Assembly: GCF_020630935.1 (NCBI RefSeq)
Contig: NZ_JAHDIG010000005.1
Span: 1-64,000 of the forward strand
DNA length: 64,000 nucleotides
From: Bernardetia sp.
Lineage (GTDB): Bacteria > Bacteroidota > Bacteroidia > Cytophagales > Bernardetiaceae
Direction of reading: 5' to 3'
This document shows, piece after piece, positions 12,305 to 38,819 of the stretch. Every line of letters starts with the position of its first letter. The stretch's first letter is position 1. The position numbers were made by a program, and so were the translations under genes. The notes under the pieces are model-generated. The model ran no database searches. It saw only the letters and a list, made by a program, of their open reading frames with translations, and was not told the DNA's origin.

Positions 12305-12856
12305 TTATAAAAAGAATTTTTCTGCTAATTTAATATTGATAAGTTCTATACTTTCCAAAATTGTAAACTGACTACTATCAATAATCAAATCTACAGTATT
12401 AGACATTGGTTTTTCAAAAGGACTACTGATACCTGTAAACTCTTTTATTTCCCCTGCTCTAGCTTTTTTGTACAAACCTTTTACATCTCTTTGTTCGCAA
12501 ATTTCTAAAGGACAATCGACAAATATTTTGAATAAATTTTGATGCTGATTGTCTCTTTCAAAAATATCAGTTACTAAATTTTGATGCTGATGTGTGGGCG
12601 TGATAAAAGAGGATAGAACGACAAAACCACTTTCATAAAAAAGTTTTGCTACTTCTGCCGAACGGCGAATATTCTCTGTTCGGCCTTCTAAAGAAAACCC
12701 AAGATTATTATTTAAGCCATTTCGAAGCAAATCTCCATCTAATTTTTTTAGTAGGGAAGATGGAGATTTTTGTTTTAAATCCTCAAAAAGAGCATTAGCA
12801 AGAGTGGTTTTTCCAGACCCAGAAAGACCTAAAAACCAAATAACACAGGGATTCAT
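12305..12856 (-). CDS. cysC: Adenylyl-sulfate (APS) kinase
   Basis: P-loop VIWFLGLSGSGKTTLANAL. Probable start at MNPCVIWF (12856). The listed ORF runs to 12910 through the upstream terminator. Confidence 0.85.
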   Translation of the reverse strand: MNPCVIWFLGLSGSGKTTLANALFEDLKQKSPSSLLKKLDGDLLRNGLNNNLGFSLEGRTENIRRSAEVAKLFYESGFVVLSSFITPTHQHQNLVTDIFERDNQHQNLFKIFVDCPLEICEQRDVKGLYKKARAGEIKEFTGISSPFEKPMSNTVDLIIDSSQFTILESIELINIKLAEKFFL

Positions 12857-12910
12857 AAAATATAAGTCTGTTTGATAAAGAATGAAATATTTTTTGAGTA
12901 TAGTATTCAT

Positions 12911-12946
12911 AAAAAAACGCCTTAATTTATATAAAAAAGGCGTTTC
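12911..12946 (-). terminator. Rho-independent terminator downstream of ftsZ (stem AAACGCCTT/AAGGCGTTT plus a U-tract on the minus strand)
   Basis: Perfect 9-bp stem. The A7 run at 12911-17 is a T-run on the minus strand. Confidence 0.6.
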
Positions 12947-12968
12947 ATTCTTTATTAATTTTTGAAAT

Positions 12969-14573
12969 TTAATCTACATTGTCGTGTAAGAAACGATTTC
13001 CTCCTAAAAGCTCATTGTCATCATCTACTTTATAACGAGAAGTAGAAGATTCTGATGAGTGAGGCATTTCTTTTAGCTTTACATTTCTACGAAGATAAGC
13101 AGGAACATCTCTACGCTCTTGCAGTTCTTCATCACTCAAATCTGACAAACTTTGCATAGAAACAGGTCGTTGTGATTCTGTTTTTTTCTCTATTACTTGA
13201 TTTTGTATAGATACATTCTCAACTTCTCTAGTTCTATTTTCTTGACTACGAGTGTTTTGTGAATGCTGATTTATGTAACCATATCCACCAACAGCTGGCG
13301 TATTTTGTGGAGCTTGATTAGTTATTTTTTTTTTTGAGTCGTCTTCATTAAAATAATCATCCTCCAAACTGAAAATTATTTTATCAGTTTTTTTAGGCTC
13401 TGTATAAGAAGGTTCTTCTTTTACAGGCTCTTGCTTTTCTATTTGAGGTGTTACGTTATTATTCGAAGTGTTTTCTTGACTTGATGAACTTTCAAAGAAA
13501 TCTTTTTTTTCGTAATCTTTTACTTCGATTCTATTTTTGATTCTTTTATTGCTCGTTAGGTCATACACTTTGCGTTCTGGTCTTTCTGGTGGCAAATCTT
13601 CTGAATGCTCAAAACCAGTAGCAATAATAGTTACACTGATACTGTCTCCAAGCGTTTCGTCAGTAGCTTGTCCGAAGATAATTTCAGCCTCATCGCCTGC
13701 TTGCTCTTGTACGTAATCTGTAACTTCTTCAAGCTCATCCATTTGGAACTCTTCTTCATTACCAATAACAATAGAAAGCAAGATATATTTTGCTCCAAAA
13801 ATATTAGTATTGTTGAGAAGAGGTGAAGAAATAGCTCCTTCAGCAGCACGTCTGGCTCTGTTTTCGCCTTCAGCTGTAGATGAACCCATTACAGCAGCAC
13901 CTGCGCCCTGCATAACTGTACGAACATCTTCAAAATCGACGTTGATAGTTCCAGAAACAGTAATAATTTCAGCAATAGATTTTGCCCCTTTCAAAAGGAC
14001 GTTATCTGCTTGACGAAAGGCTTCACGCATAGAGGCTTTTCCATACACATCTCTCAAACGGTCGTTTAAGATGACCAATACTGTATCACAATGCTCACGA
14101 AGAGCATTTACACCTTCTTGCGCTCGTACTCGTTTTGGTCTGCCTTCAAAACTAAACGGAGCAGTTACAATTCCTACTGTCAAGATGCCTAATTCTTGTG
14201 CAATTTCAGCAATGACTGGAGCAGCACCTGTACCTGTTCCACCACCCATTCCAGCAGTGATGAAAAGCATTTTGGTATTGTTTCCTAATATTTTCTTTAA
14301 ATCGTCTTTACTCTCAATAGCAGCACTTCTTCCACGTTCAGGATTTGCTCCTGCGCCTAAGCCTTGTGTGAGTGTTTTTCCTATCTGAACTTTATTTGGA
14401 ACAGGACTTAAATCAAGGGCTTGAATATCAGTATTACAGATATAAAAATCCACCCCTTTTATTCCGTGCAAATACATATGTGCAACAGCGTTGCCACCAC
14501 CTCCACCAACACCAATTACTTTGATAATTGAAGGTTCTGTTCCGAAATTATAATTTGTAACGTCTGACATCAT
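12969..14573 (-). CDS. ftsZ: Cell division GTPase FtsZ with a long low-complexity C-terminal linker
   Basis: GVGGGGGNAV and GMGGGTGTGAAPVIAEIA tubulin/FtsZ signatures. 534 aa with an extended disordered tail. Confidence 0.95.
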   Translation of the reverse strand: MMSDVTNYNFGTEPSIIKVIGVGGGGGNAVAHMYLHGIKGVDFYICNTDIQALDLSPVPNKVQIGKTLTQGLGAGANPERGRSAAIESKDDLKKILGNNTKMLFITAGMGGGTGTGAAPVIAEIAQELGILTVGIVTAPFSFEGRPKRVRAQEGVNALREHCDTVLVILNDRLRDVYGKASMREAFRQADNVLLKGAKSIAEIITVSGTINVDFEDVRTVMQGAGAAVMGSSTAEGENRARRAAEGAISSPLLNNTNIFGAKYILLSIVIGNEEEFQMDELEEVTDYVQEQAGDEAEIIFGQATDETLGDSISVTIIATGFEHSEDLPPERPERKVYDLTSNKRIKNRIEVKDYEKKDFFESSSSQENTSNNNVTPQIEKQEPVKEEPSYTEPKKTDKIIFSLEDDYFNEDDSKKKITNQAPQNTPAVGGYGYINQHSQNTRSQENRTREVENVSIQNQVIEKKTESQRPVSMQSLSDLSDEELQERRDVPAYLRRNVKLKEMPHSSESSTSRYKVDDDNELLGGNRFLHDNVD

Positions 14574-14964
14574 TGAATGCTTATTTCAAGGTTTTGGGCT
14601 TGTTTGTATATTTTATTTTCATTCATACTAATTTTACGTCAAAAAATGTGTACTTACTTTAAATACGGTATAAAAAATTAATCTGAATGAACTTTTAATT
14701 ATAGCTATATTTTTAGTACCAAACTACTAAGTTCTATTTTAGTTTATTATTTTGTTATTATCTCAACCACTTTCAAACCTTTGGTTTACTTCAATGGGCT
14801 TTACTTTGTTTAGTTAGAAAGCTATTTAATCACAAAGAAACAAAAATAGTTTGATTAAGCTACGATAAGTTAAGCTAAATTATTTCAAATATGCAAAAAA
14901 AAAATAAAAAATCTAAGTTTTTTTGTGTTTAATTTTGAAATGTCAGTTTTTTATAAAAATCCAT

Positions 14965-26596: not shown

Positions 26597-27166
26597 ATGT
26601 CAGATTATACATTTTCAAAAGTATTTAAGAATATAAATTTTTCAGAGCAAGAATTTCCCACAGGAGAGTATGAAGAATGTAGTTTTCAAAACTGTATTTT
26701 TAGAAATAGTAATTTATCACATTCTAAATTTATCAACTGCGATTTTGAAAGTTGCGATTTATCTAGCATAAAATTAGGTGAGACTTCATTGCAAGAAATT
26801 ACTATCAAAAATTCTAAGTTGCTTGGGGTGGTATTTTCAGACTGTACTAATTTTTTGCTATCTATACACTTTATTCATTGCTTACTTGACTTTTCATCTT
26901 TCTATCAGCTAAATCTTAAAGATTTTAAATTCAAGAATTGTAGCCTTAAAGATGTCGATTTTACAGAAGCAAATCTTAAAAAAGTAGCTTTTGAAGACTG
27001 CAATTTGATAGGAGCTACTTTTGAGAATACCGTTTTAGAAAGTGCAGATTTTCGAAGTGCAACAAATTATTCTATCAATCCTGCAAAAAATAAAATCAAA
27101 AAAGCAAAATTTTCTAGTCAAGAAGTAAAAGGACTCTTGGATAGTTATGATATTTTGATTGAATGA
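26597..27166 (+). CDS. Pentapeptide-repeat protein (Qnr/MfpA-like fold)
   Basis: Consecutive A(D/N)LXX-type pentapeptides throughout (CSFQNCIFRNSNLSHSKFINCDFESCDLSSIKL...). Confidence 0.8.
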   Translation: MSDYTFSKVFKNINFSEQEFPTGEYEECSFQNCIFRNSNLSHSKFINCDFESCDLSSIKLGETSLQEITIKNSKLLGVVFSDCTNFLLSIHFIHCLLDFSSFYQLNLKDFKFKNCSLKDVDFTEANLKKVAFEDCNLIGATFENTVLESADFRSATNYSINPAKNKIKKAKFSSQEVKGLLDSYDILIE

Positions 27167-27522
27167 AAAAACACAGTTCAAATTGTAAGTTAACGTGAAC
27201 TCGGAATTACAAATAAGCTAATTACTTGTTTCAAGTAGATTAGATATAGAACTTGTTTAAGAATGGTTTTTCTAGCGCAAGATTCCATCTTGTGTTTACC
27301 GTTTTGTCAGCATATGCTGACGAAAAAGTACGTCCAAGCAGAATGCTTGAACGAGAAACAATAATTAAAATTTACTCTATACCTCATTAAAGGTACTTTT
27401 TTTCATTCTTAAACAACTTCATAGTTTTTGGTCTGCTCTAATGAGACTGACCTAAAATGTAAATCCTAAGTTCACGTTGGGTTAGATGAAAAGGTTCTAA
27501 AAGAATTAGAGACTAAATGATT

Positions 27523-30006
27523 TTACTCTTTACTTTCTGTATTTTCAGGCAATTTCAAGCTATCCAAAACGCTGCTGAGTTGTGTGCCTTTCAGAAGATT
27601 TGCAAACACGTCTGCCACAGAGTTTCCTCCCAAAATTGCGAGTGGAGCCATCGAATCTGCCATTTTTTGAGCAAGTGCTTTATCAGAAAACGATTGCAAG
27701 GCTGCAATAAGGTCTGGAGAAACAGCTTTTGCTTTGGCTACTACTGCCTCTACTTCTGTTTGTTCTTCCAAAATGTACTGCTCTAGCTGTTTTTGAGCTT
27801 TTTCTATCTCAACGGCATCTTTAGCTCTTTGTCTAGTAAGTTCGTCTTCATTGATTTGATTGAGCGTTTTTTGTTCGTCTAAATTAGCTTGTAAATGACG
27901 CTCCTTACTCATTATTTCACTTTCAATTTTAGATAAAGTAACTTCTAAGAGTTTTTTGACTTCTTCTTTTTGAAGTTCGTAGATTTTCTGCTTAGTTTCA
28001 GATTGTGTAGCTGCGATTTGTCTTGTAATGGCTTCGCTTTCTTGTGTAAATTCTAATTTTCGTTTTTCAGCATTTATGCGAAGTGTTTGCATAACTGTAT
28101 CTTGCTGTGAAGAAATAAGTAGATTTTCAATATTTGCATCACCCAAACTTATATCCAAAATCTCAACGTCGTAGATACGCATTCCATTTTCTTCAAAAAG
28201 TCGTCCTGTGCGTTTCCCTGTTTTCTTGTCAGACTCTCCTAAAATAGCATCTCTCAAAATCGTAATTCCATTGGCATAAAATTCCATAATTGGATATCTT
28301 CTGACAGTATTTCGGATATACGAACGCATGTGGTCTGTTAAAAATTTGACATAGTTTTCCACATTAAACCACTTTTCAGAATCTCCTTCAAAATTGACAC
28401 GATACGAAAGATGTATTCTAACTTGCGTGTAATCTGCCGATTCTGCCATTATCTCATCCGAAACTTTATTATACAACACTCTCAAATAAACCGTTTTGAT
28501 AGAATTTGCTGTTGTTTTTGGTGTTCCTGTTGAAAGCTCTATACCTTCTAATTCTTCATCGTATTCCAAAAGATACGATTGAGGACCTTCAATGACTTTT
28601 CGTTTTCCTGTCTTGCTAACCACTAAAACAGCATATCCTGTCCAAGGCGCAATCGTAACAGCTCCTTCAAATTTTGTATCTAATGTCACCATACGAGGTG
28701 GCGTAAACGAACTATCACGATTAAATTCGTCGCTTACTACTTCGTCTGCAATCTTAGCTTTTTTTCGTAATTGTTGTTGTGGAGCTTCTGGTGCTTGATT
28801 TTGTTCTTGTAATTCAAAATCAGTAACGAAATTATCGTTTTTAGCAATACTTTGCATCGCCATATTGTACTCCATTGCTTCATTGTTATTTGGAAACCAA
28901 AGTGATGTTTGCTTTTTTGTCAAAACTCTTCGTACCAAAACAAATTCTCTTGGGTCTGGCAAAAACATCGCTGCACCTTTTTTGAGAGCGACTGTTCCTG
29001 TTTTACGATTGAGGTAATAACGTCCTTCTCCTGCTGGAATAGCAATGGCATAATGACGTTCTTTTTTTCCATAACGAATAATGGCGTGTTCTGGGCGAGG
29101 ATAATAAATCATTTGGTCTTTTCCAGTAATGAAAAGCTCGTCGCCTTCTTTATACTCGTTTTTTCCTTCTTTATAAGGAGCAATGACTTTTATATAGAGT
29201 CCACTCATTTCATTGAGTTCGATGGCTTTAAATTTTCGTTGTCCATTTTTCTCAATAAACTCTTCTGTTGGTTCTGGAAAGACTACTTTTGGACCTTGAA
29301 TATAGCGTTTGTTTCCATCTTCGTTGAGCAAAATACAGTATTCCAAACGTTCTAAAGTTACAGCCTCTCGCACATATTCATCTGTTTCGTAACCGTATGA
29401 GTCTGTTCTGACCACTTCAATTCCTGTGGGTGGAATATAAAACGAAACAGCATCGCCACGAATAATCAGAAGCTGACCCATTGTAAGACTTTCAGCTACT
29501 TTTTTGAGTTCTTTTACTTCTTTATCCTCTCCTTCTTTTGTTTTGATGACGGATTTACCCCAATTTTCTCGTGCTTGTTGTTCATCATACACACGAACCA
29601 ATAAATATTGATTCGAACTCAAATTATGTCCTCTGACTACTCTTGCCATTTGTCCAGCCCAAAGTGCAAAAGAAATAGGACCTGAAATATTTACTTTTCT
29701 TCCTACATTGAGTTCGGCTAAATTGTTACTTGTTCCTACTTTTGGTGGGTTATTATCTTTTGAAGGGTTTTTCAAAACTATATACCATCCTTCTGGTGCA
29801 ATGACAAAAGAACGCATCGAATCTTCTAAAGTACATTTTTCGAAACGTTTGGTTTCGTCGTCGAACATCACAGGACGGTCAGTATTGGCAAGGCTAGTTT
29901 TGTAAGGACCTACATAAACATTGATATTTCCTTTAGTTTGGTCAGAAATAAATGCGTACTCATTAGGAGCTAAAACTAAATCTCTTTCTCGGTTACTATC
30001 AGACAT
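27523..30006 (-). CDS. Major vault protein (MVP) homolog
   Basis: N-terminus PNEYAFISDQTKGNINVYVGPYKTSL...RPVMFDDE parallels the first MVP repeat of eukaryotic MVP ([36 protein letters not shown]). About 8 tandem ~55-aa repeats, a shoulder region, a long C-terminal coiled-coil cap-helix, and a C-terminal ...PLAILGGNSVADVFANLL region resembling the MVP cap ring. Confidence 0.8.
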   Translation of the reverse strand: MSDSNRERDLVLAPNEYAFISDQTKGNINVYVGPYKTSLANTDRPVMFDDETKRFEKCTLEDSMRSFVIAPEGWYIVLKNPSKDNNPPKVGTSNNLAELNVGRKVNISGPISFALWAGQMARVVRGHNLSSNQYLLVRVYDEQQARENWGKSVIKTKEGEDKEVKELKKVAESLTMGQLLIIRGDAVSFYIPPTGIEVVRTDSYGYETDEYVREAVTLERLEYCILLNEDGNKRYIQGPKVVFPEPTEEFIEKNGQRKFKAIELNEMSGLYIKVIAPYKEGKNEYKEGDELFITGKDQMIYYPRPEHAIIRYGKKERHYAIAIPAGEGRYYLNRKTGTVALKKGAAMFLPDPREFVLVRRVLTKKQTSLWFPNNNEAMEYNMAMQSIAKNDNFVTDFELQEQNQAPEAPQQQLRKKAKIADEVVSDEFNRDSSFTPPRMVTLDTKFEGAVTIAPWTGYAVLVVSKTGKRKVIEGPQSYLLEYDEELEGIELSTGTPKTTANSIKTVYLRVLYNKVSDEIMAESADYTQVRIHLSYRVNFEGDSEKWFNVENYVKFLTDHMRSYIRNTVRRYPIMEFYANGITILRDAILGESDKKTGKRTGRLFEENGMRIYDVEILDISLGDANIENLLISSQQDTVMQTLRINAEKRKLEFTQESEAITRQIAATQSETKQKIYELQKEEVKKLLEVTLSKIESEIMSKERHLQANLDEQKTLNQINEDELTRQRAKDAVEIEKAQKQLEQYILEEQTEVEAVVAKAKAVSPDLIAALQSFSDKALAQKMADSMAPLAILGGNSVADVFANLLKGTQLSSVLDSLKLPENTESKE

Positions 30007-30289
30007 AAGTGTTTGTGATTAAGTTAAAATGATAAGCTAAACTTGATGATAGAATTTTTTTGCTGGTAGATTTTAATTCCTTAATCTTAGTGTAAAATAT
30101 ACAATAAGTTGTTTTGTTTTTATTAACGCTACTCTACATGTAAAGGTTTCATTATTTTAGAATAAATGTGTTTTTTTTACACTAAGTTGCTTTTGTGATT
30201 TTTTAATTCGTTATATCTCAATACTAATCCAAACTACAATGTAGTAGTAATCCGTTTTTATTCTAGTTATCCATTTTTAAATTATTCGT

Positions 30290-30526
30290 TTAATCAACAG
30301 GGTCATATCCACTTCCTCCCCACGGATGGCATCGTCCTATACGCTTTATGCCTTTCCATCCTCCTTTGAAAGGACCATACTTTTTAATAGCTTCTACCAT
30401 ATATGCTGAACAGGTAGGAGTGTACCTACAACGAGGAGGCAATATAGGTGAGATGAAGTATTGATAGAAACGTACAATAGCCAGAAAAATGAATGAGAAG
30501 AACTGAGAAATGTATTTTAGTACCAC
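30290..30526 (-). CDS. yidD: Membrane protein insertion efficiency factor YidD
   Basis: FYQ(Y)[28 protein letters not shown]...[14 protein letters not shown] matches the YidD signature. Confidence 0.85.
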
Positions 30527-36313: not shown

Positions 36314-37327
36314 TCAATACTCATCATCATCATCATTTCTGCGCTGAGTACCTCTTTCTTCTGGATTAGCTATCGATTCACGCATTTGCGTATCAGCTTG
36401 TAAGTTTCTTAAGCGCTGGTAGTCCATAATTCCGAAGTTTCCTGTGCGTAAGGCTTCTGAAAGAGCTTTTGGAACTTCTGCCTCTGCTTCGATAACTTTT
36501 GCTCTTGATGCCTGTGCTTTGGCTTTCATTTCTTGCTCTACGGCGATTGCCATTGCACGACGTTCTTCGGCTTTTGCTTCGGCTACTCTTAAGTCGGCAT
36601 TAGCTTGTTCGATTTGGAGTTTTGCACCAATATTTTCCCCAACATCAATATCTGCAATATCAATAGAGAGGATTTCAAAGGCTGTTCCTGCGTCTAATCC
36701 TTTTTCCAAAACGAGTTTAGAAATTCGGTCTGGATTTTCCAATACGTCTTTGTGAGAGTGCGACGAACCTACTGCCGTTACGATACCCTCACCCACACGA
36801 GCCAAAATAGTTTCCTCACCAGCACCACCGACAAGTTGAGCAATGTTAGCACGAAGCGTAACACGAGCTTTTGTGATAAGTTGAATACCATCTTGTGCTA
36901 CTGAAGTAACAGCATTTGTAGTAATTACTTTTGGATTTACAGAAATTTGTACGGCTTCTGAAACGTCTCTACCTGCTAGGTCGATGGCTGCAGCTTGTTT
37001 GAAACTTAGGTCAATGTTGGCTTTATCGGCTGCAATGAGTGCTTTTACCACTTCCTCTACACTACCACCTGCCAAAAAGTGCGTCTCCAAATCTGATGCT
37101 GTTATTTCTTTCAAACCTGCTTTACTAGCATTAATGAGAGGCAAAACAATTTTGCGTGGGCGAACATTTCGGATTCGCATGGCTACAAGTTCCAAAAGCC
37201 CTAAACGAACACCAGAAAATATAGCTGTAATCCATAAGTTAATTGGAATGTAGGTGCGTATGAGAAGGGCAAGCACCACTATAATTACACCAAAAATAGC
37301 AAATAAAACAGTTTGTTCTAACGACAT
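36314..37327 (-). CDS. floA: Flotillin-like protein FloA (UPF0365/YqfA family, SPFH domain)
   Basis: Strong similarity across the protein to B. subtilis YqfA/FloA (e.g. ...[29 protein letters not shown]... versus [29 protein letters not shown] here). Confidence 0.85.
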
Positions 37328-37421: not shown

Positions 37422-38819
37422 TTACAGAATATACTGACTTAAATCTTTGTTTTTAACAAGAGTTGCAAGTTTTTCTTGTACCATTTCTTTTGTAATGACT
37501 ACATGAGCATTTGCTGGAATGGTATCTGGTACATCAAATAAAATTTCGTTCAGAAGATGACTCATAACAGTATGCAAACGTCTTGCACCAATATTTTCTA
37601 CTTCTGTATTAATATGAAAAGCAATATCTGCAATTTCTTCTAATGCCTCTTCCTGATAAGTGAGTTTTACATTCTCAGCATCCAAAAGAGCAACATATTG
37701 CTTGCTAAGGGCATTTTTTGGGTCTTTCAAGATTTTGTAGAAGTCTTCTTTAGTTAGGGAGTTGAGTTCTACACGAATTGGAAAACGTCCTTGCAGTTCT
37801 GGAATGAGGTCAGAAGGTTTCGAAACGTGAAACGCTCCTGCTGCTACAAACAAAATATGGTCTGTATTGACAATTCCGTGTTTGGTAGTTACGGCACTTC
37901 CTTCTACAATTGGTAGCAAATCACGCTGTACACCTTCACGGCTTACATCGACTCCACCACCTTTATTGCTAGACGAAGCCACTTTATCAATCTCATCAAT
38001 AAAAATAATTCCAGAATTTTCAGCTTTCTTGATGGCTTCAGCTTTTACTTCGTCCATATCAATAAGTTTGTAAGCCTCTTCTTCTAAAAGTAATTTTCTA
38101 GCTTCTTCTATCGTAACTTTGCGCTTTTTAGAACGGCTAGGAAGCATGCCACTAAGCATTTCTTGAAGATTCATCATCGAAACTTCATCAATTGCTCCAC
38201 CTACAACACCCACACCAGGGTTATTACTTGATTCTAAGGTAATTTCTATTTTTCTATCTTCTAATTCGCCAGCACGTAATTTTTCTCTAAAACGTTCTCT
38301 TGTTCTTTCATTGAGTTCGGCATCTGAAGTTGGCATCTCATCATTAGAAAACCCAACAGCAGACGGTGTAGTGGTTGGCTTTCTGTTTTTGAGAGGTGGA
38401 ATAAGTGCATCTAAAATAATATCTTCAACAGCTTTTTCTGCTTTTTGCTTTACAGCGTCACGCTTTTCTGTCTGTACAAGTTTGACAGCTTGCTCCACCA
38501 AGTCTCTGACCATACTTTCTACATCACGCCCTACATAACCCACTTCCGTAAACTTTGAAGCCTCTACTTTAACAAAAGGAGCATTGGCTACCTTTGCCAA
38601 ACGACGAGCAATTTCAGTTTTACCAACACCTGTTGAGCCTATCATCAAGATATTGTTGGGCATAATTTCACGCTGCATGTCAGATTTAACATGCATACGT
38701 CGCCAACGGTTACGCAATGCGATAGCTACATTTCTTTTTGCTTCGTGTTGTCCTATAATGTACTTGTCTAACTCTGCAACAATTTGTTTGGGCGTATAAT
38801 AGATGTTATTGTCAATCAT
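37422..38819 (-). CDS. hslU: ATP-dependent protease ATPase subunit HslU
   Basis: MTPKQIVAELDKYIIGQ..., Walker A GSTGVGKTEIARRLAK, I-domain, sensor motifs. Confidence 0.95.
   Translation of the reverse strand: MIDNNIYYTPKQIVAELDKYIIGQHEAKRNVAIALRNRWRRMHVKSDMQREIMPNNILMIGSTGVGKTEIARRLAKVANAPFVKVEASKFTEVGYVGRDVESMVRDLVEQAVKLVQTEKRDAVKQKAEKAVEDIILDALIPPLKNRKPTTTPSAVGFSNDEMPTSDAELNERTRERFREKLRAGELEDRKIEITLESSNNPGVGVVGGAIDEVSMMNLQEMLSGMLPSRSKKRKVTIEEARKLLLEEEAYKLIDMDEVKAEAIKKAENSGIIFIDEIDKVASSSNKGGGVDVSREGVQRDLLPIVEGSAVTTKHGIVNTDHILFVAAGAFHVSKPSDLIPELQGRFPIRVELNSLTKEDFYKILKDPKNALSKQYVALLDAENVKLTYQEEALEEIADIAFHINTEVENIGARRLHTVMSHLLNEILFDVPDTIPANAHVVITKEMVQEKLATLVKNKDLSQYIL

Follow-up and report, generated by a model that had tools for sequence, protein, structure and literature searches.

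A stand-alone gene for a bacterial homolog of the major vault protein in Bernardetia

The window, by which we mean the whole 64-kb stretch of Bernardetia sp. DNA analyzed here, carries on its minus strand an ATG-initiated open reading frame at 27523-30006 that encodes a protein of 827 residues; a protein 100% identical to it is filed in NCBI as a hypothetical protein of Bernardetia sp. An earlier note on this DNA had described the frame as encoding a homolog of the eukaryotic major vault protein (MVP), lying between yidD and a pentapeptide-repeat gene. Both the call and the surroundings are as described there, with YidD encoded at 30290-30526 (PF01809, 109 bits) and the pentapeptide-repeat protein at 26597-27166. 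The gene sits among housekeeping genes, and the region downstream of it is a variable spot in Bernardetia, where a PIN toxin-antitoxin pair and a reverse transcriptase are found. The features of the locus, with the basis of each assignment, are the following:

27523..30006, minus strand: coding sequence of the 827-residue MVP-family protein, stop codon at 27523-27525 (open reading frame list, Pfam and PDB sequence matches)
28921..29982, minus strand: six N-terminal beta-repeat domains (aa 9-58, 59-126, 127-204, 205-255, 256-312 and 313-362)
28672..28920, minus strand: predicted helical insert (aa 363-405) and disordered, poorly conserved linker (aa 406-445) (AF2)
28477..28671, minus strand: seventh repeat, equivalent to MVP R9 (aa 446-510) (Vault_3, profile alignment)
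28138..28476, minus strand: shoulder with an SPFH/band-7 fold (aa 511-623)
27730..28137, minus strand: cap-helix, predicted as a single continuous helix of ~136 residues (aa 624-759) (AF2, MVP alignment)
27526..27729, minus strand: C-terminal region of short predicted helices (aa 760-827), possibly corresponding to the cap-ring (AF2)
30087..30151, minus strand: conserved upstream block, invariant in 7 Bernardetia-like genomes
30175..30186, no strand assigned: far arm of a 12-bp inverted repeat, whose partner arm (30086-30097) lies inside the conserved block
27180..27490, no strand assigned: orphan structured intergenic element between convergent stop codons

Sequence, profile and predicted-structure evidence agree in supporting the claimed homology. 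A profile search and a structure prediction of the monomer had been proposed as checks in the earlier note. In the former, both MVP_shoulder (PF11978, aa 512-623, 112.2 bits against a cutoff of 25, E=1.9e-32) and the R9-type repeat family Vault_3 (PF17795, aa 465-508, 31.2 bits against a cutoff of 28.8) were recovered above their cutoffs; Vault_3 alone among the Pfam vault repeat families passes, with none of the others reported for aa 1-460 at E<=1. The only strong matches among PDB sequences are the rat, human and rabbit MVPs, found at E=5e-15 when the single sequence served as query and at 1.4e-24 with the family profile. This profile is collinear with human and rat MVP over R9, the shoulder and the cap-helix, in an alignment that starts at residue 465 and passes through the MVP cap-helix up to MVP residue 810, and the PDB sequence search additionally returned a second, weak collinear stretch pairing aa 217-350 with MVP 275-409, or aa 219-349 with MVP 277-408 in a slightly narrower alignment. 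Animal MVPs are no more than about 15-21% identical to the Bernardetia protein. The AlphaFold model (pLDDT 83.8) matches solved vault chains over its full length, and in Foldseek searches full-length MVP chains were retrieved at E values of 1e-33 to 1e-26, as against 1e-6 or weaker for membrane SPFH proteins. Both the beta-repeats and the cap-helix are present in this model, which displays an N-terminal array of antiparallel beta-repeats with the MVP R-domain fold, then an SPFH alpha/beta fold and a CC1-type helix; neither of the outcomes that the earlier note had named as refuting its reading was thus obtained. On the combined basis of sequence and modeled structure we conclude that the Bernardetia protein is a genuine bacterial MVP homolog, with a resemblance far beyond chance, and that the MVP family is a branch of the SPFH/band-7 superfamily.

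The AF2 model used here was computed from a 100-sequence input, an earlier input of 50 close homologs having given a pLDDT of 56 for the N-terminal half. The predicted repeat array is present, as had been claimed, but it comprises seven domains of 50-78 residues instead of about eight of about 55. Between the sixth and seventh repeats the model places helices at aa 364-403, followed by a stretch with pLDDT below 50 (aa 409-442); this whole insert and linker region (aa 363-445) varies in length and shows 27-30% identity across the family. The seventh repeat has a length fixed at 64-67 residues across the family. The cap-helix was predicted at aa 624-759 in two independent AF2 runs, directly after the shoulder. 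Beyond it the C-terminal region is poorly modeled (pLDDT about 50), and the first motif past the helix, SPDLIAAL, falls in the alignment that reaches MVP residue 810, with no further C-terminal alignment. This region also holds the most hydrophobic stretch of the protein, still under the level of a transmembrane segment. As the maximum Kyte-Doolittle hydropathy over 19 residues is 1.28, with a polar N-terminus and no transmembrane segment, the protein is probably soluble and cytoplasmic.

The find is real, but it was already known. The window protein is 90% identical to the Flexibacter/Bernardetia litoralis protein I4AHY9, which Daly et al. 2013 (PMC3762200) had already put forward as a putative MVP from bacteria, and 65% identical to A1ZGE7 of Microscilla marina. 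Other bacterial homologs, including H6L4P8 of Saprospira grandis, have likewise been listed (Daly et al. 2013, PMC3762200; Sokolskyi 2019), and many members of the family are already labelled 'major vault protein' by JGI. The family comprises ~1,300 clusters at 50% identity from at least ten phyla, the 150 of them that were listed all being full length and 41-54% identical to the window protein, and it extends to 310 IMG/VR contigs. Hence neither the rarity in bacteria that the earlier note had stated nor the novelty of the find holds, and the phrase 'few Bacteria', still quoted in 2026, greatly understates the size and spread of the family. Synteny with the B. litoralis locus includes yidD, queA and HATPase. 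Given that the GC3 of the gene is like that of its neighbors, its GC also being native, and that the leaf order of the tree largely tracks bacterial phyla, we regard the gene as native and vertically inherited in Bernardetiaceae.

The description of the gene as stand-alone, with no vPARP or TEP1 partner, was upheld in a comparison of 86 bacterial loci. No neighboring family is conserved across them, and a search for operon partners by clustering all their open reading frames yielded only antisense artefacts and small clade-specific clusters. Genes for TEP1 (TROVE), PARP4 (vWA) or vault RNAs were sought within 10 kb of the MVP gene in these loci and none was found. The 64-kb window likewise yielded no tRNA, no Rfam RNA and no second MVP-like gene. 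FloA and an AAA ATPase are encoded within 5-8 kb of the MVP gene in every Bernardetia genome examined; this linkage is absent beyond the genus and is therefore treated as genus-level synteny. FloA moreover lacks detectable similarity to the MVP homolog, and the two were rejected as partners.

Structured DNA had been reported on both sides of the gene. On the 3' side the strong folding is confirmed: the segment 27180-27490, which takes in the reported 27186-27485, folds with z=-8.8 and -9.1 on the two strands and contains three concentric inverted-repeat pairs. A link to the gene by conservation is not, the element being absent from every relative. It has no Rfam match at gathering or permissive thresholds and no further copy in the window, in 85 related loci (7 of them Bernardetia-like) or in the phage database, and an exact 28-mer from it is absent from metagenome contigs. 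A pattern search for its terminal inverted repeats returned two loci whose interiors are unrelated, and these are thus chance matches. On these results we discarded the candidacy of the element as a vault-RNA-like partner or a known non-coding RNA; it is a strain-specific orphan. Upstream, the 12-bp inverted repeat is present, but its far arm is kept in only 3 of 7 close genomes, so that conservation ties it to the gene no better, and its candidacy as a conserved regulatory hairpin or operator was also dropped.

What is conserved upstream is the block that contains the near arm, which is invariant in the 7 closely related genomes although the surrounding intergenic DNA is unalignable. It includes an ECF-sigma-like motif, TGAAAC-N17-CGTT, at 30125-30151 on the minus strand, followed by an invariant CTTATTGTAT.T.T.ACACTAA; the form TGAAACCTTTA-N13-RCGTT is invariant in all 7. 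Each of these genomes has a single copy of the full motif in its locus of roughly 20 kb, invariably upstream of the MVP gene. For the ECF reading we assume a consensus with AAC in the -35 element and CGT in the -10 element, 16-17 nucleotides apart, taken from B. subtilis sigma-W/X/M. The motif is accordingly a candidate ECF-sigma-type promoter by its letters, judged by a Bacillus consensus. The MVP gene would appear to be transcribed singly from it, and a promoter of this type suggests stress-responsive expression.

In the eukaryotic vault 39 + 39 copies of MVP form a closed barrel. An indication that the bacterial protein could also assemble comes from the length of its cap-helix. Among 100 members compared, with pairwise identities of only 33-50%, the spacing between the anchors flanking the helix is exactly 147 residues in 68, and in 26 of the remaining 32 it differs by 4, 7, 11, 18 or 22 residues, which correspond to whole helical turns. 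The helix sequence itself is only 25% identical across the family, while its length is essentially fixed. Such a fixed, turn-quantized length in a drifting sequence supports assembly of the cap-helices into a symmetric cage. A published regression of subunit number on helix length (y=0.1782x+10.22; PMC12624060) gives 34.5 subunits at 136 residues, although only a handful of complexes went into the fit, which is extended beyond them here.

Based on these observations we consider it probable that the gene specifies a soluble, cytoplasmic, vertically inherited MVP-family protein that forms a half-vault cup and is expressed as a single gene from an ECF-type promoter. Many copies would pack side by side, as in every structurally characterized SPFH protein: the cap would be a closed barrel built of the long helices, the shoulders would line up in a ring, and a thin wall would consist of the repeats. 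By the regression roughly 33-36 subunits would make up one half-vault cup. Two such cups may join at their highly conserved N-terminal repeats, thereby enclosing cytosol, and no dedicated partner gene would be needed. The two fewer repeats than in rat MVP could change the geometry. Daly et al. 2013 (PMC3762200) report that the ortholog from B. litoralis docks favorably side to side in silico.

Full-length homologs also occur in viruses, namely in the 310 IMG/VR contigs and in 3 GenBank huge-phage genomes (LR756500, LR756501 and LR756503); these are 40-53% identical and stand as a block of their own in the tree. Of the best 80 viral loci, 25 have the MVP-like gene surrounded, on the same strand, by genes for RNA end-healing and sealing, in islands drawn from Thg1, RNA ligase, RlaP, kinase-HD, cREC, metallophosphatase, RNase T, NADAR and DUF2828/DUF7788 families. 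The vWA-like DUF2828/DUF7788 gene keeps its place directly upstream of the MVP-like gene in 15 loci, whereas the remaining genes change order, and the MVP-like proteins of these loci are 39 to 100% identical to one another. Arrays of tRNA genes are located a few kb from the viral MVP-like gene. We considered DUF2828/DUF7788 as a Ro/TROVE homolog and rejected it, as it has no PDB sequence match and only a weak VWA_2 match (E=0.005).

The eukaryotic vault ribonucleoprotein consists of MVP, the vWA-containing PARP4, the TROVE/NADase protein TEP1 and small RNAs, and Burroughs and Aravind reportedly proposed in 2016 that SPFH/band-7 and TROVE scaffolds act in RNA repair. Since the phage homologs sit in RNA end-healing and sealing islands, an RNA- or RNP-related role may be the best functional lead for the MVP homolog. 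It is tempting to extend this into a scenario in which prokaryotic and phage MVP-like proteins are cytosolic cages working with RNA end-healing and sealing enzymes and a vWA partner (DUF2828/DUF7788), the eukaryotic vault being descended from such a compartment for the repair or sequestration of RNA in virus-host conflict, and the chromosomal Bernardetia gene being a domesticated stand-alone copy under a stress promoter; we put this forward only tentatively, and the 3' orphan element plays no part in it. The RNA-repair neighbor families are all absent from the 86 bacterial loci and from the window, and the RNA link may therefore not transfer to the chromosomal gene.

The same viral loci raise the possibility that the protein is a component of virus-host conflict, phage-derived or shared with phages, providing the cage or scaffold on which RNA would be repaired or sequestered under infection or toxin attack. 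Structurally this overlaps with the half-vault cup and additionally specifies a function. The viral homologs, their same-strand islands, the DUF2828/DUF7788 gene kept upstream across so wide a range of MVP identity, the tRNA arrays and the toxin-antitoxin pair and reverse transcriptase downstream of the Bernardetia gene would all fit. We nevertheless hold it to be doubtful: searches of PADLOC defense models and PHROG profiles with the MVP homolog gave no match, on which ground we rejected membership in a defense system; the bacterial loci lack the repair families; the viral copies stand apart in the tree; and the window gene has native composition and housekeeping surroundings. Furthermore, synteny among related phages is possible without functional coupling.

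A membrane-associated SPFH scaffold of the flotillin, HflK/C, QmcA or stomatin type, dome-shaped and seated on the inner side of the cytoplasmic membrane, shares the shoulder fold and long helix with the Bernardetia protein. It is unlikely here, because there is no transmembrane or strongly hydrophobic segment, because ~500 residues of MVP-type repeats stand where the membrane anchor would be, and because the structure search separates MVP chains so clearly from membrane SPFH proteins; the FloA encoded nearby is neither similar nor linked outside the genus. Still less likely is a soluble protein that does not assemble, such as a nucleotide-binding or sequestering protein or a monomeric scaffold, even though pockets for GMP and CMP have been predicted in the shoulder region of homologs from Cytophagales and Myxococcales (2019 preprint, 10.1101/872010). 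A 136-residue helix standing alone in solvent is not expected to be stable, and it is difficult to see why helix length should be kept in whole turns while the sequence drifts unless the helices pack laterally. Every solved SPFH protein that has a helix of this kind is a ring former, and the docking result for the ortholog points the same way. Recent horizontal acquisition from a eukaryote, or contamination of the assembly, might be suspected since MVP is best known from eukaryotes, and horizontal transfer was considered by earlier authors (Daly et al. 2013, PMC3762200), but it is effectively refuted by the native GC and GC3, the synteny with B. litoralis, the low identity to animal MVP, the large family of closer bacterial relatives and the leaf order.

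The half-vault cup that we favor bears on a protein family whose function has been open since the discovery of vaults and whose origin is debated, with Asgard, Borg and cyanobacterial proposals. Whether a cage is formed, what it contains and when it is made could be asked in a simple system if a cultured bacterium has just one, stand-alone MVP gene, and B. litoralis DSM 6794 carries the 90% ortholog. This opportunity was not created by the present window, as that ortholog has been in the literature since 2013. What is added here is the breadth of the family, the fixed and quantized cap-helix as sequence-level evidence for symmetric assembly, the conserved candidate ECF-like promoter, and the huge-phage RNA-repair islands beside a vWA-like gene as a testable functional lead.

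Among known systems, the homologs of B. litoralis, M. marina and S. grandis belong to the same clade as the window protein and share its architecture; the window differs from the listed cases in coming from a different Bernardetia strain or species, in its downstream neighborhood and in the strain-specific 3' structured element. Many huge-phage MVP-like genes lie in RNA-repair and tRNA islands beside DUF2828/DUF7788, a context that the bacterial loci lack. The membrane SPFH cages (HflK/C, QmcA, flotillin, stomatin, prohibitin and erlin) have the SPFH domain and long CC1-type helix in common with it, and in the solved cages this unit builds a closed ring or dome whose subunit number scales with helix length; unlike the window protein, they are membrane-anchored and have no repeat wall, and the match is confined to shoulder and helix. 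The Asgard archaeal and Borg MVP-like proteins (PMC12962969, PMC12660748) also combine repeats, shoulder and cap-helix and are predicted to form cups; the Asgard representative, compared here by its description, has five repeats and was modeled as a decamer. Eukaryotic MVP (4V60, 4HL8, 9BW5 and 9Z4W) has nine repeats against seven here, where three larger domains replace rat R1-R5, and a cap-helix of roughly 156 against ~136 residues; TEP1, PARP4 and vault-RNA genes are missing near the Bernardetia gene, and the bacterial members are known from genes, with no particle observed. It is at the same time the best match by both sequence and structure, with the same order of beta-repeats, SPFH-type shoulder, very long cap-helix and short C-terminus, in a protein that is, like its predicted bacterial counterpart, soluble and free of a membrane anchor.

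The 827-aa product of the gene at 27523-30006 (-), which matches the ORF list and for which an earlier note had proposed homology to the eukaryotic major vault protein (MVP), is deposited at NCBI in 100% identical form as 'hypothetical protein [Bernardetia sp.]'. In B. litoralis DSM 6794, of the same genus Bernardetia (Bernardetiaceae, Cytophagales), a 'Shoulder domain protein' shares 90% identity with it. Pfam searches recovered the MVP_shoulder (112 bits, cutoff 25, aa 512-623) and Vault_3 (31.2 bits, cutoff 28.8, aa 465-508) profiles; NCBIfam has no model matching the protein. When all PDB entries were searched by sequence, the sole matches with E below 0.1 were full-length MVP chains (E=5e-15), with collinear stretches pairing aa 219-349 with MVP 277-408 and aa 462-763 with MVP 470-788, and a family profile matched MVP at E=1.4e-24 (aa 465-777 against MVP 465-810). 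A first AlphaFold run with 50 close homologs modelled the shoulder and helix only; a second, with 100 sequences of identity down to 39%, reached a mean pLDDT of 83.8, mostly above 90 in the N-terminal half, and predicts the following architecture:

aa 9-58, 59-126, 127-204, 205-255, 256-312 and 313-362: beta-repeat domains 1 to 6
aa 363-405: helical insert
aa 406-445: disordered linker
aa 446-510: seventh beta-repeat
aa 511-623: alpha/beta shoulder
aa 624-759: single uninterrupted helix
after aa 759: short C-terminal helices, low-confidence, candidate cap-ring equivalent

Relative to rat MVP, repeats 4-7 correspond to R6-R9 by the collinear alignments, whereas three larger N-terminal domains stand where R1-R5 would. 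The array of beta-repeats expected from the earlier note is present in the model, with seven members rather than about eight; its N-terminal repeats are undetected by Pfam repeat profiles and visible in the structure model only. Both profile matches and a model with repeats and cap-helix were found, the lack of either having been named beforehand as grounds for abandoning the homology. The profiles, PDB matches and model confirm the original observation, and support assignment of the protein to the MVP family in every testable respect, bar the cap-ring and the recognition of the N-terminal repeats at the sequence level. No vault-organelle partners were found around the gene.

Such proteins proved far from rare in bacteria, contrary to what had been supposed. 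A word-indexed protein search returned >6,800 proteins at E<1e-5, many of these family members being already named 'major vault protein' by JGI, and an exhaustive search of 50%-identity representatives returned 1,316 clusters at E<=1e-3, of which 639 also reach E<=1e-30; the 150 top-ranking ones are full-length and show 41-54% identity to the window protein. Two exact peptide patterns recovered 351 loci (56-71% identity) from a one-genome-per-species collection, spread over ten groups: Bacteroidota, Riflebacteria, Sericytochromatia, Chloroflexota, Desulfobacterota, Myxococcota, Vulcanimicrobiota, Synergistota, Moduliflexota and Bacillota. As an observation the bacterial MVP homolog is already known, because it was preceded by Daly et al. 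2013, who placed the ortholog from Flexibacter litoralis (I4AHY9) among bacterial proteins folding and docking like MVP in silico, by Sokolskyi 2019, who analysed homologs from Cytophagales, Myxococcales and Oscillatoriales including their band-7 character, and by Santos et al. 2023, who described two phage MVPs. Our literature search found no experimental work on bacterial members of the family.

A recent acquisition from a eukaryote is the alternative to long descent within bacteria. In a neighbour-joining tree built from full-length proteins, 84 bacterial and 80 viral (both sets picked by similarity to the query), read by leaf order as a proxy for monophyly only, the Bacteroidota, Riflebacteria and Sericytochromatia each formed one contiguous block, the Desulfobacterota were mostly contiguous, the Chloroflexota and Myxococcota each fell into two pieces, and every viral sequence lay in one block apart. 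The GC3 of the gene (0.257) is like that of other genes in the window, which holds no paralog, and yidD, HATPase and queA are shared in synteny with B. litoralis. The tree blocks, native codon composition and synteny argue for long residence of the gene in bacteria and against recent eukaryotic transfer. The surroundings of the gene in the window and the spot directly downstream of it in other Bernardetia genomes are occupied as follows:

26597-27166: pentapeptide-repeat protein, convergent with the MVP-like gene
27180-27490: orphan structured element, in the downstream variable spot
30290-30526: YidD
36314-37327 (-) and 37422-38819 (-): FloA-like gene and AAA+ ATPase
B. litoralis (L001) 12590-14909: PIN toxin-antitoxin pair and LRR proteins, downstream variable spot
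strain MNP-M8 (L003) 12560-13588: 342-aa protein, downstream variable spot
strain Wsw4-3y2 (L005) 12537-14808: 531-aa reverse transcriptase, downstream variable spot

An AraC regulator, a methyltransferase, an RsbW-type HATPase and QueA are also present in the neighbourhood, with FloA and the AAA ATPase farther off. Clustering of all ORFs within 10 kb on either side in 86 bacterial loci yielded no conserved neighbour family, the clusters recurring in many loci being only ORFs that overlap the MVP-like gene itself; this, together with the downstream neighbour that differs by genome in Bernardetia, bears out the description of a stand-alone gene. All Bernardetia genomes examined have, despite rearrangements, a flotillin-like FloA gene and one for an AAA+ (ClpB/Cdc48-like) ATPase within 5-8 kb of the MVP-like gene (L001 3954-6518; L003 2739-3764, 13658-15061; L005 2741-3766, 15897-17300). 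Since this linkage was not found beyond the genus, it is probably genus-level synteny.

The structured DNA noticed 3' of the gene is real as strong predicted structure: the region 27180-27490 (~310 nt) gave fold z-scores of -8.8 and -9.1 on the two strands versus shuffles, and comprises three concentric (nested) pairs of inverted repeats. It also has three local hairpins, of which one resembles a terminator on the strand of the MVP-like gene. The element matches no Rfam family and has no second copy in the window, and searches of phage and metagenome collections did not recover it. As a conserved partner of the gene it was rejected, being absent next to it in all 85 related loci (all seven Bernardetia-like relatives and the other 78). 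By sequence comparison it is a strain-specific orphan in the variable spot, and may represent an insertion remnant, a MITE or a strain-specific ncRNA. On a GC-rich metagenome contig (L086 6271-6549), the arms of a perfect 13-14-nt inverted repeat, AACGTGAACTATG / CATAGTTCACGTT, lie ~280 nt apart; its termini match those of the element and its interior is unrelated, and the likeness is probably due to chance.

On the 5' side the reported 12-bp inverted repeat is present (30086-30097 and 30175-30186), its far arm being kept in only 3 of 7 relatives. A ~65-nt block (30087-30151, (-)) is kept in all seven Bernardetia-like genomes, amid unalignable intergenic DNA, and contains TGAAACCTTTA-N13-(A/G)CGTT, then CTTATTGTAT.T.T.ACACTAA. 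The motif TGAAACCTTTA-N13-RCGTT and the trailing 20-nt block are invariant upstream of the MVP-like gene in these genomes (in the relatives, L001 9844-9870; L003/L005 9818-9844; L006 4250-4276; L007 9874-9900; L008 9867-9893), and each locus has a single copy of the full motif, in every case placed 100-180 nt upstream of the gene; a looser pattern has two copies in the window versus 0.41 expected, the second inside an ORF. TGAAAC-N17-CGT resembles the ECF sigma consensus of B. subtilis sigma-W, -X and -M; the flotillin genes of B. subtilis are sigma-W targets. This resemblance to an ECF-sigma promoter suggests stress-regulated expression of the MVP-like gene.

The maximal hydropathy over 19 residues is 1.28, and the protein is without a membrane-spanning segment. 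Across 100 family members with only 33-50% mutual identity (alignment A3, region of query aa 618-764), the helix varies more in sequence than any other region (25% identity to the query) and less in length (interquartile range 136-136 residues). The anchor-to-anchor length is exactly 147 residues in 68 members, and of the other 32, 26 depart from it by -18, -11, -7, -4, +4, +11 or +22 residues, each step corresponding to whole alpha-helical turns. The length of the cap-helix is quantised, a pattern expected of a helix that is packed side by side and in register against identical copies, as are the helices of the vault cap and of all solved SPFH cages. [quoted passage not shown] Repeat 1 has many invariant positions among close homologs and a mean identity to the query of 52% across the family, versus 46-63% in other repeats, which fits, rather than proves, an interface such as a half-to-half waist. 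We lean, with some reserve, towards cage formation by the window protein, and hold a two-halved closed vault to be less probable. Most likely, it would self-assemble into a soluble cup or barrel of closed symmetry, each ring comprising roughly 33-36 subunits, and a stress-type promoter would drive its production on demand.

Full-length relatives (40-53% identity) are also encoded by 310 IMG/VR contigs, many of 100-480 kb, and MVP-like proteins of 41-46% identity by three complete GenBank 'uncultured phage' genomes (462 and 735 kb) deposited as records without annotation: LR756500.1 (20958-23387), LR756501.1 and LR756503.1 (17638-19602). Among the 80 best viral loci there are 25 on huge-phage contigs (including L129, L131, L135, L139, L141, L143, L149, L150, L153, L159-L162 and L164) in which the MVP-like gene lies within a same-strand RNA end-healing and sealing island, whose other genes encode Thg1, RNA ligase, a RlaP-like nucleotidyltransferase, a P-loop kinase-HD phosphatase, a cREC receiver domain protein, three metallophosphatases, an RNase T-like exonuclease, NADAR and a DUF2828/DUF7788 protein with a weak vWA match. 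The gene order is shuffled from locus to locus, and the MVP proteins encoded there share 39-100% identity; despite the shuffling, the DUF2828/DUF7788 gene is directly upstream of the MVP-like gene in 15 loci. Arrays of tRNA genes (L159/L160 3913-5717; L141 94-3272; L131 74-6457; L147 675-13624; L138 16776-19703), in many island loci a few kb from the MVP-like gene, include amber-suppressor tRNAs with a CTA anticodon. These hint at stop-codon recoding in these phages, by which table-11 ORF calls in their loci may be truncated. The bacterial loci and the window contain none of the island families, and no PADLOC or PHROG model matches the window protein.

Vault function is a long-standing question for which the stand-alone bacterial gene provides a tractable system, but this handle has been known since 2013; the RNA-repair context of the phage genes is an unexpected lead on function. 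The eukaryotic vault consists of MVP, the vWA-containing PARP4, the TROVE protein TEP1 and small RNAs. TEP1 has recently been described as a TIR-like NADase, and the searches run did not demonstrate a likeness of DUF2828 to TROVE. In combining an MVP-like and a vWA-like gene with RNA repair, the phage island offers a suggestive parallel to the composition of the eukaryotic vault.
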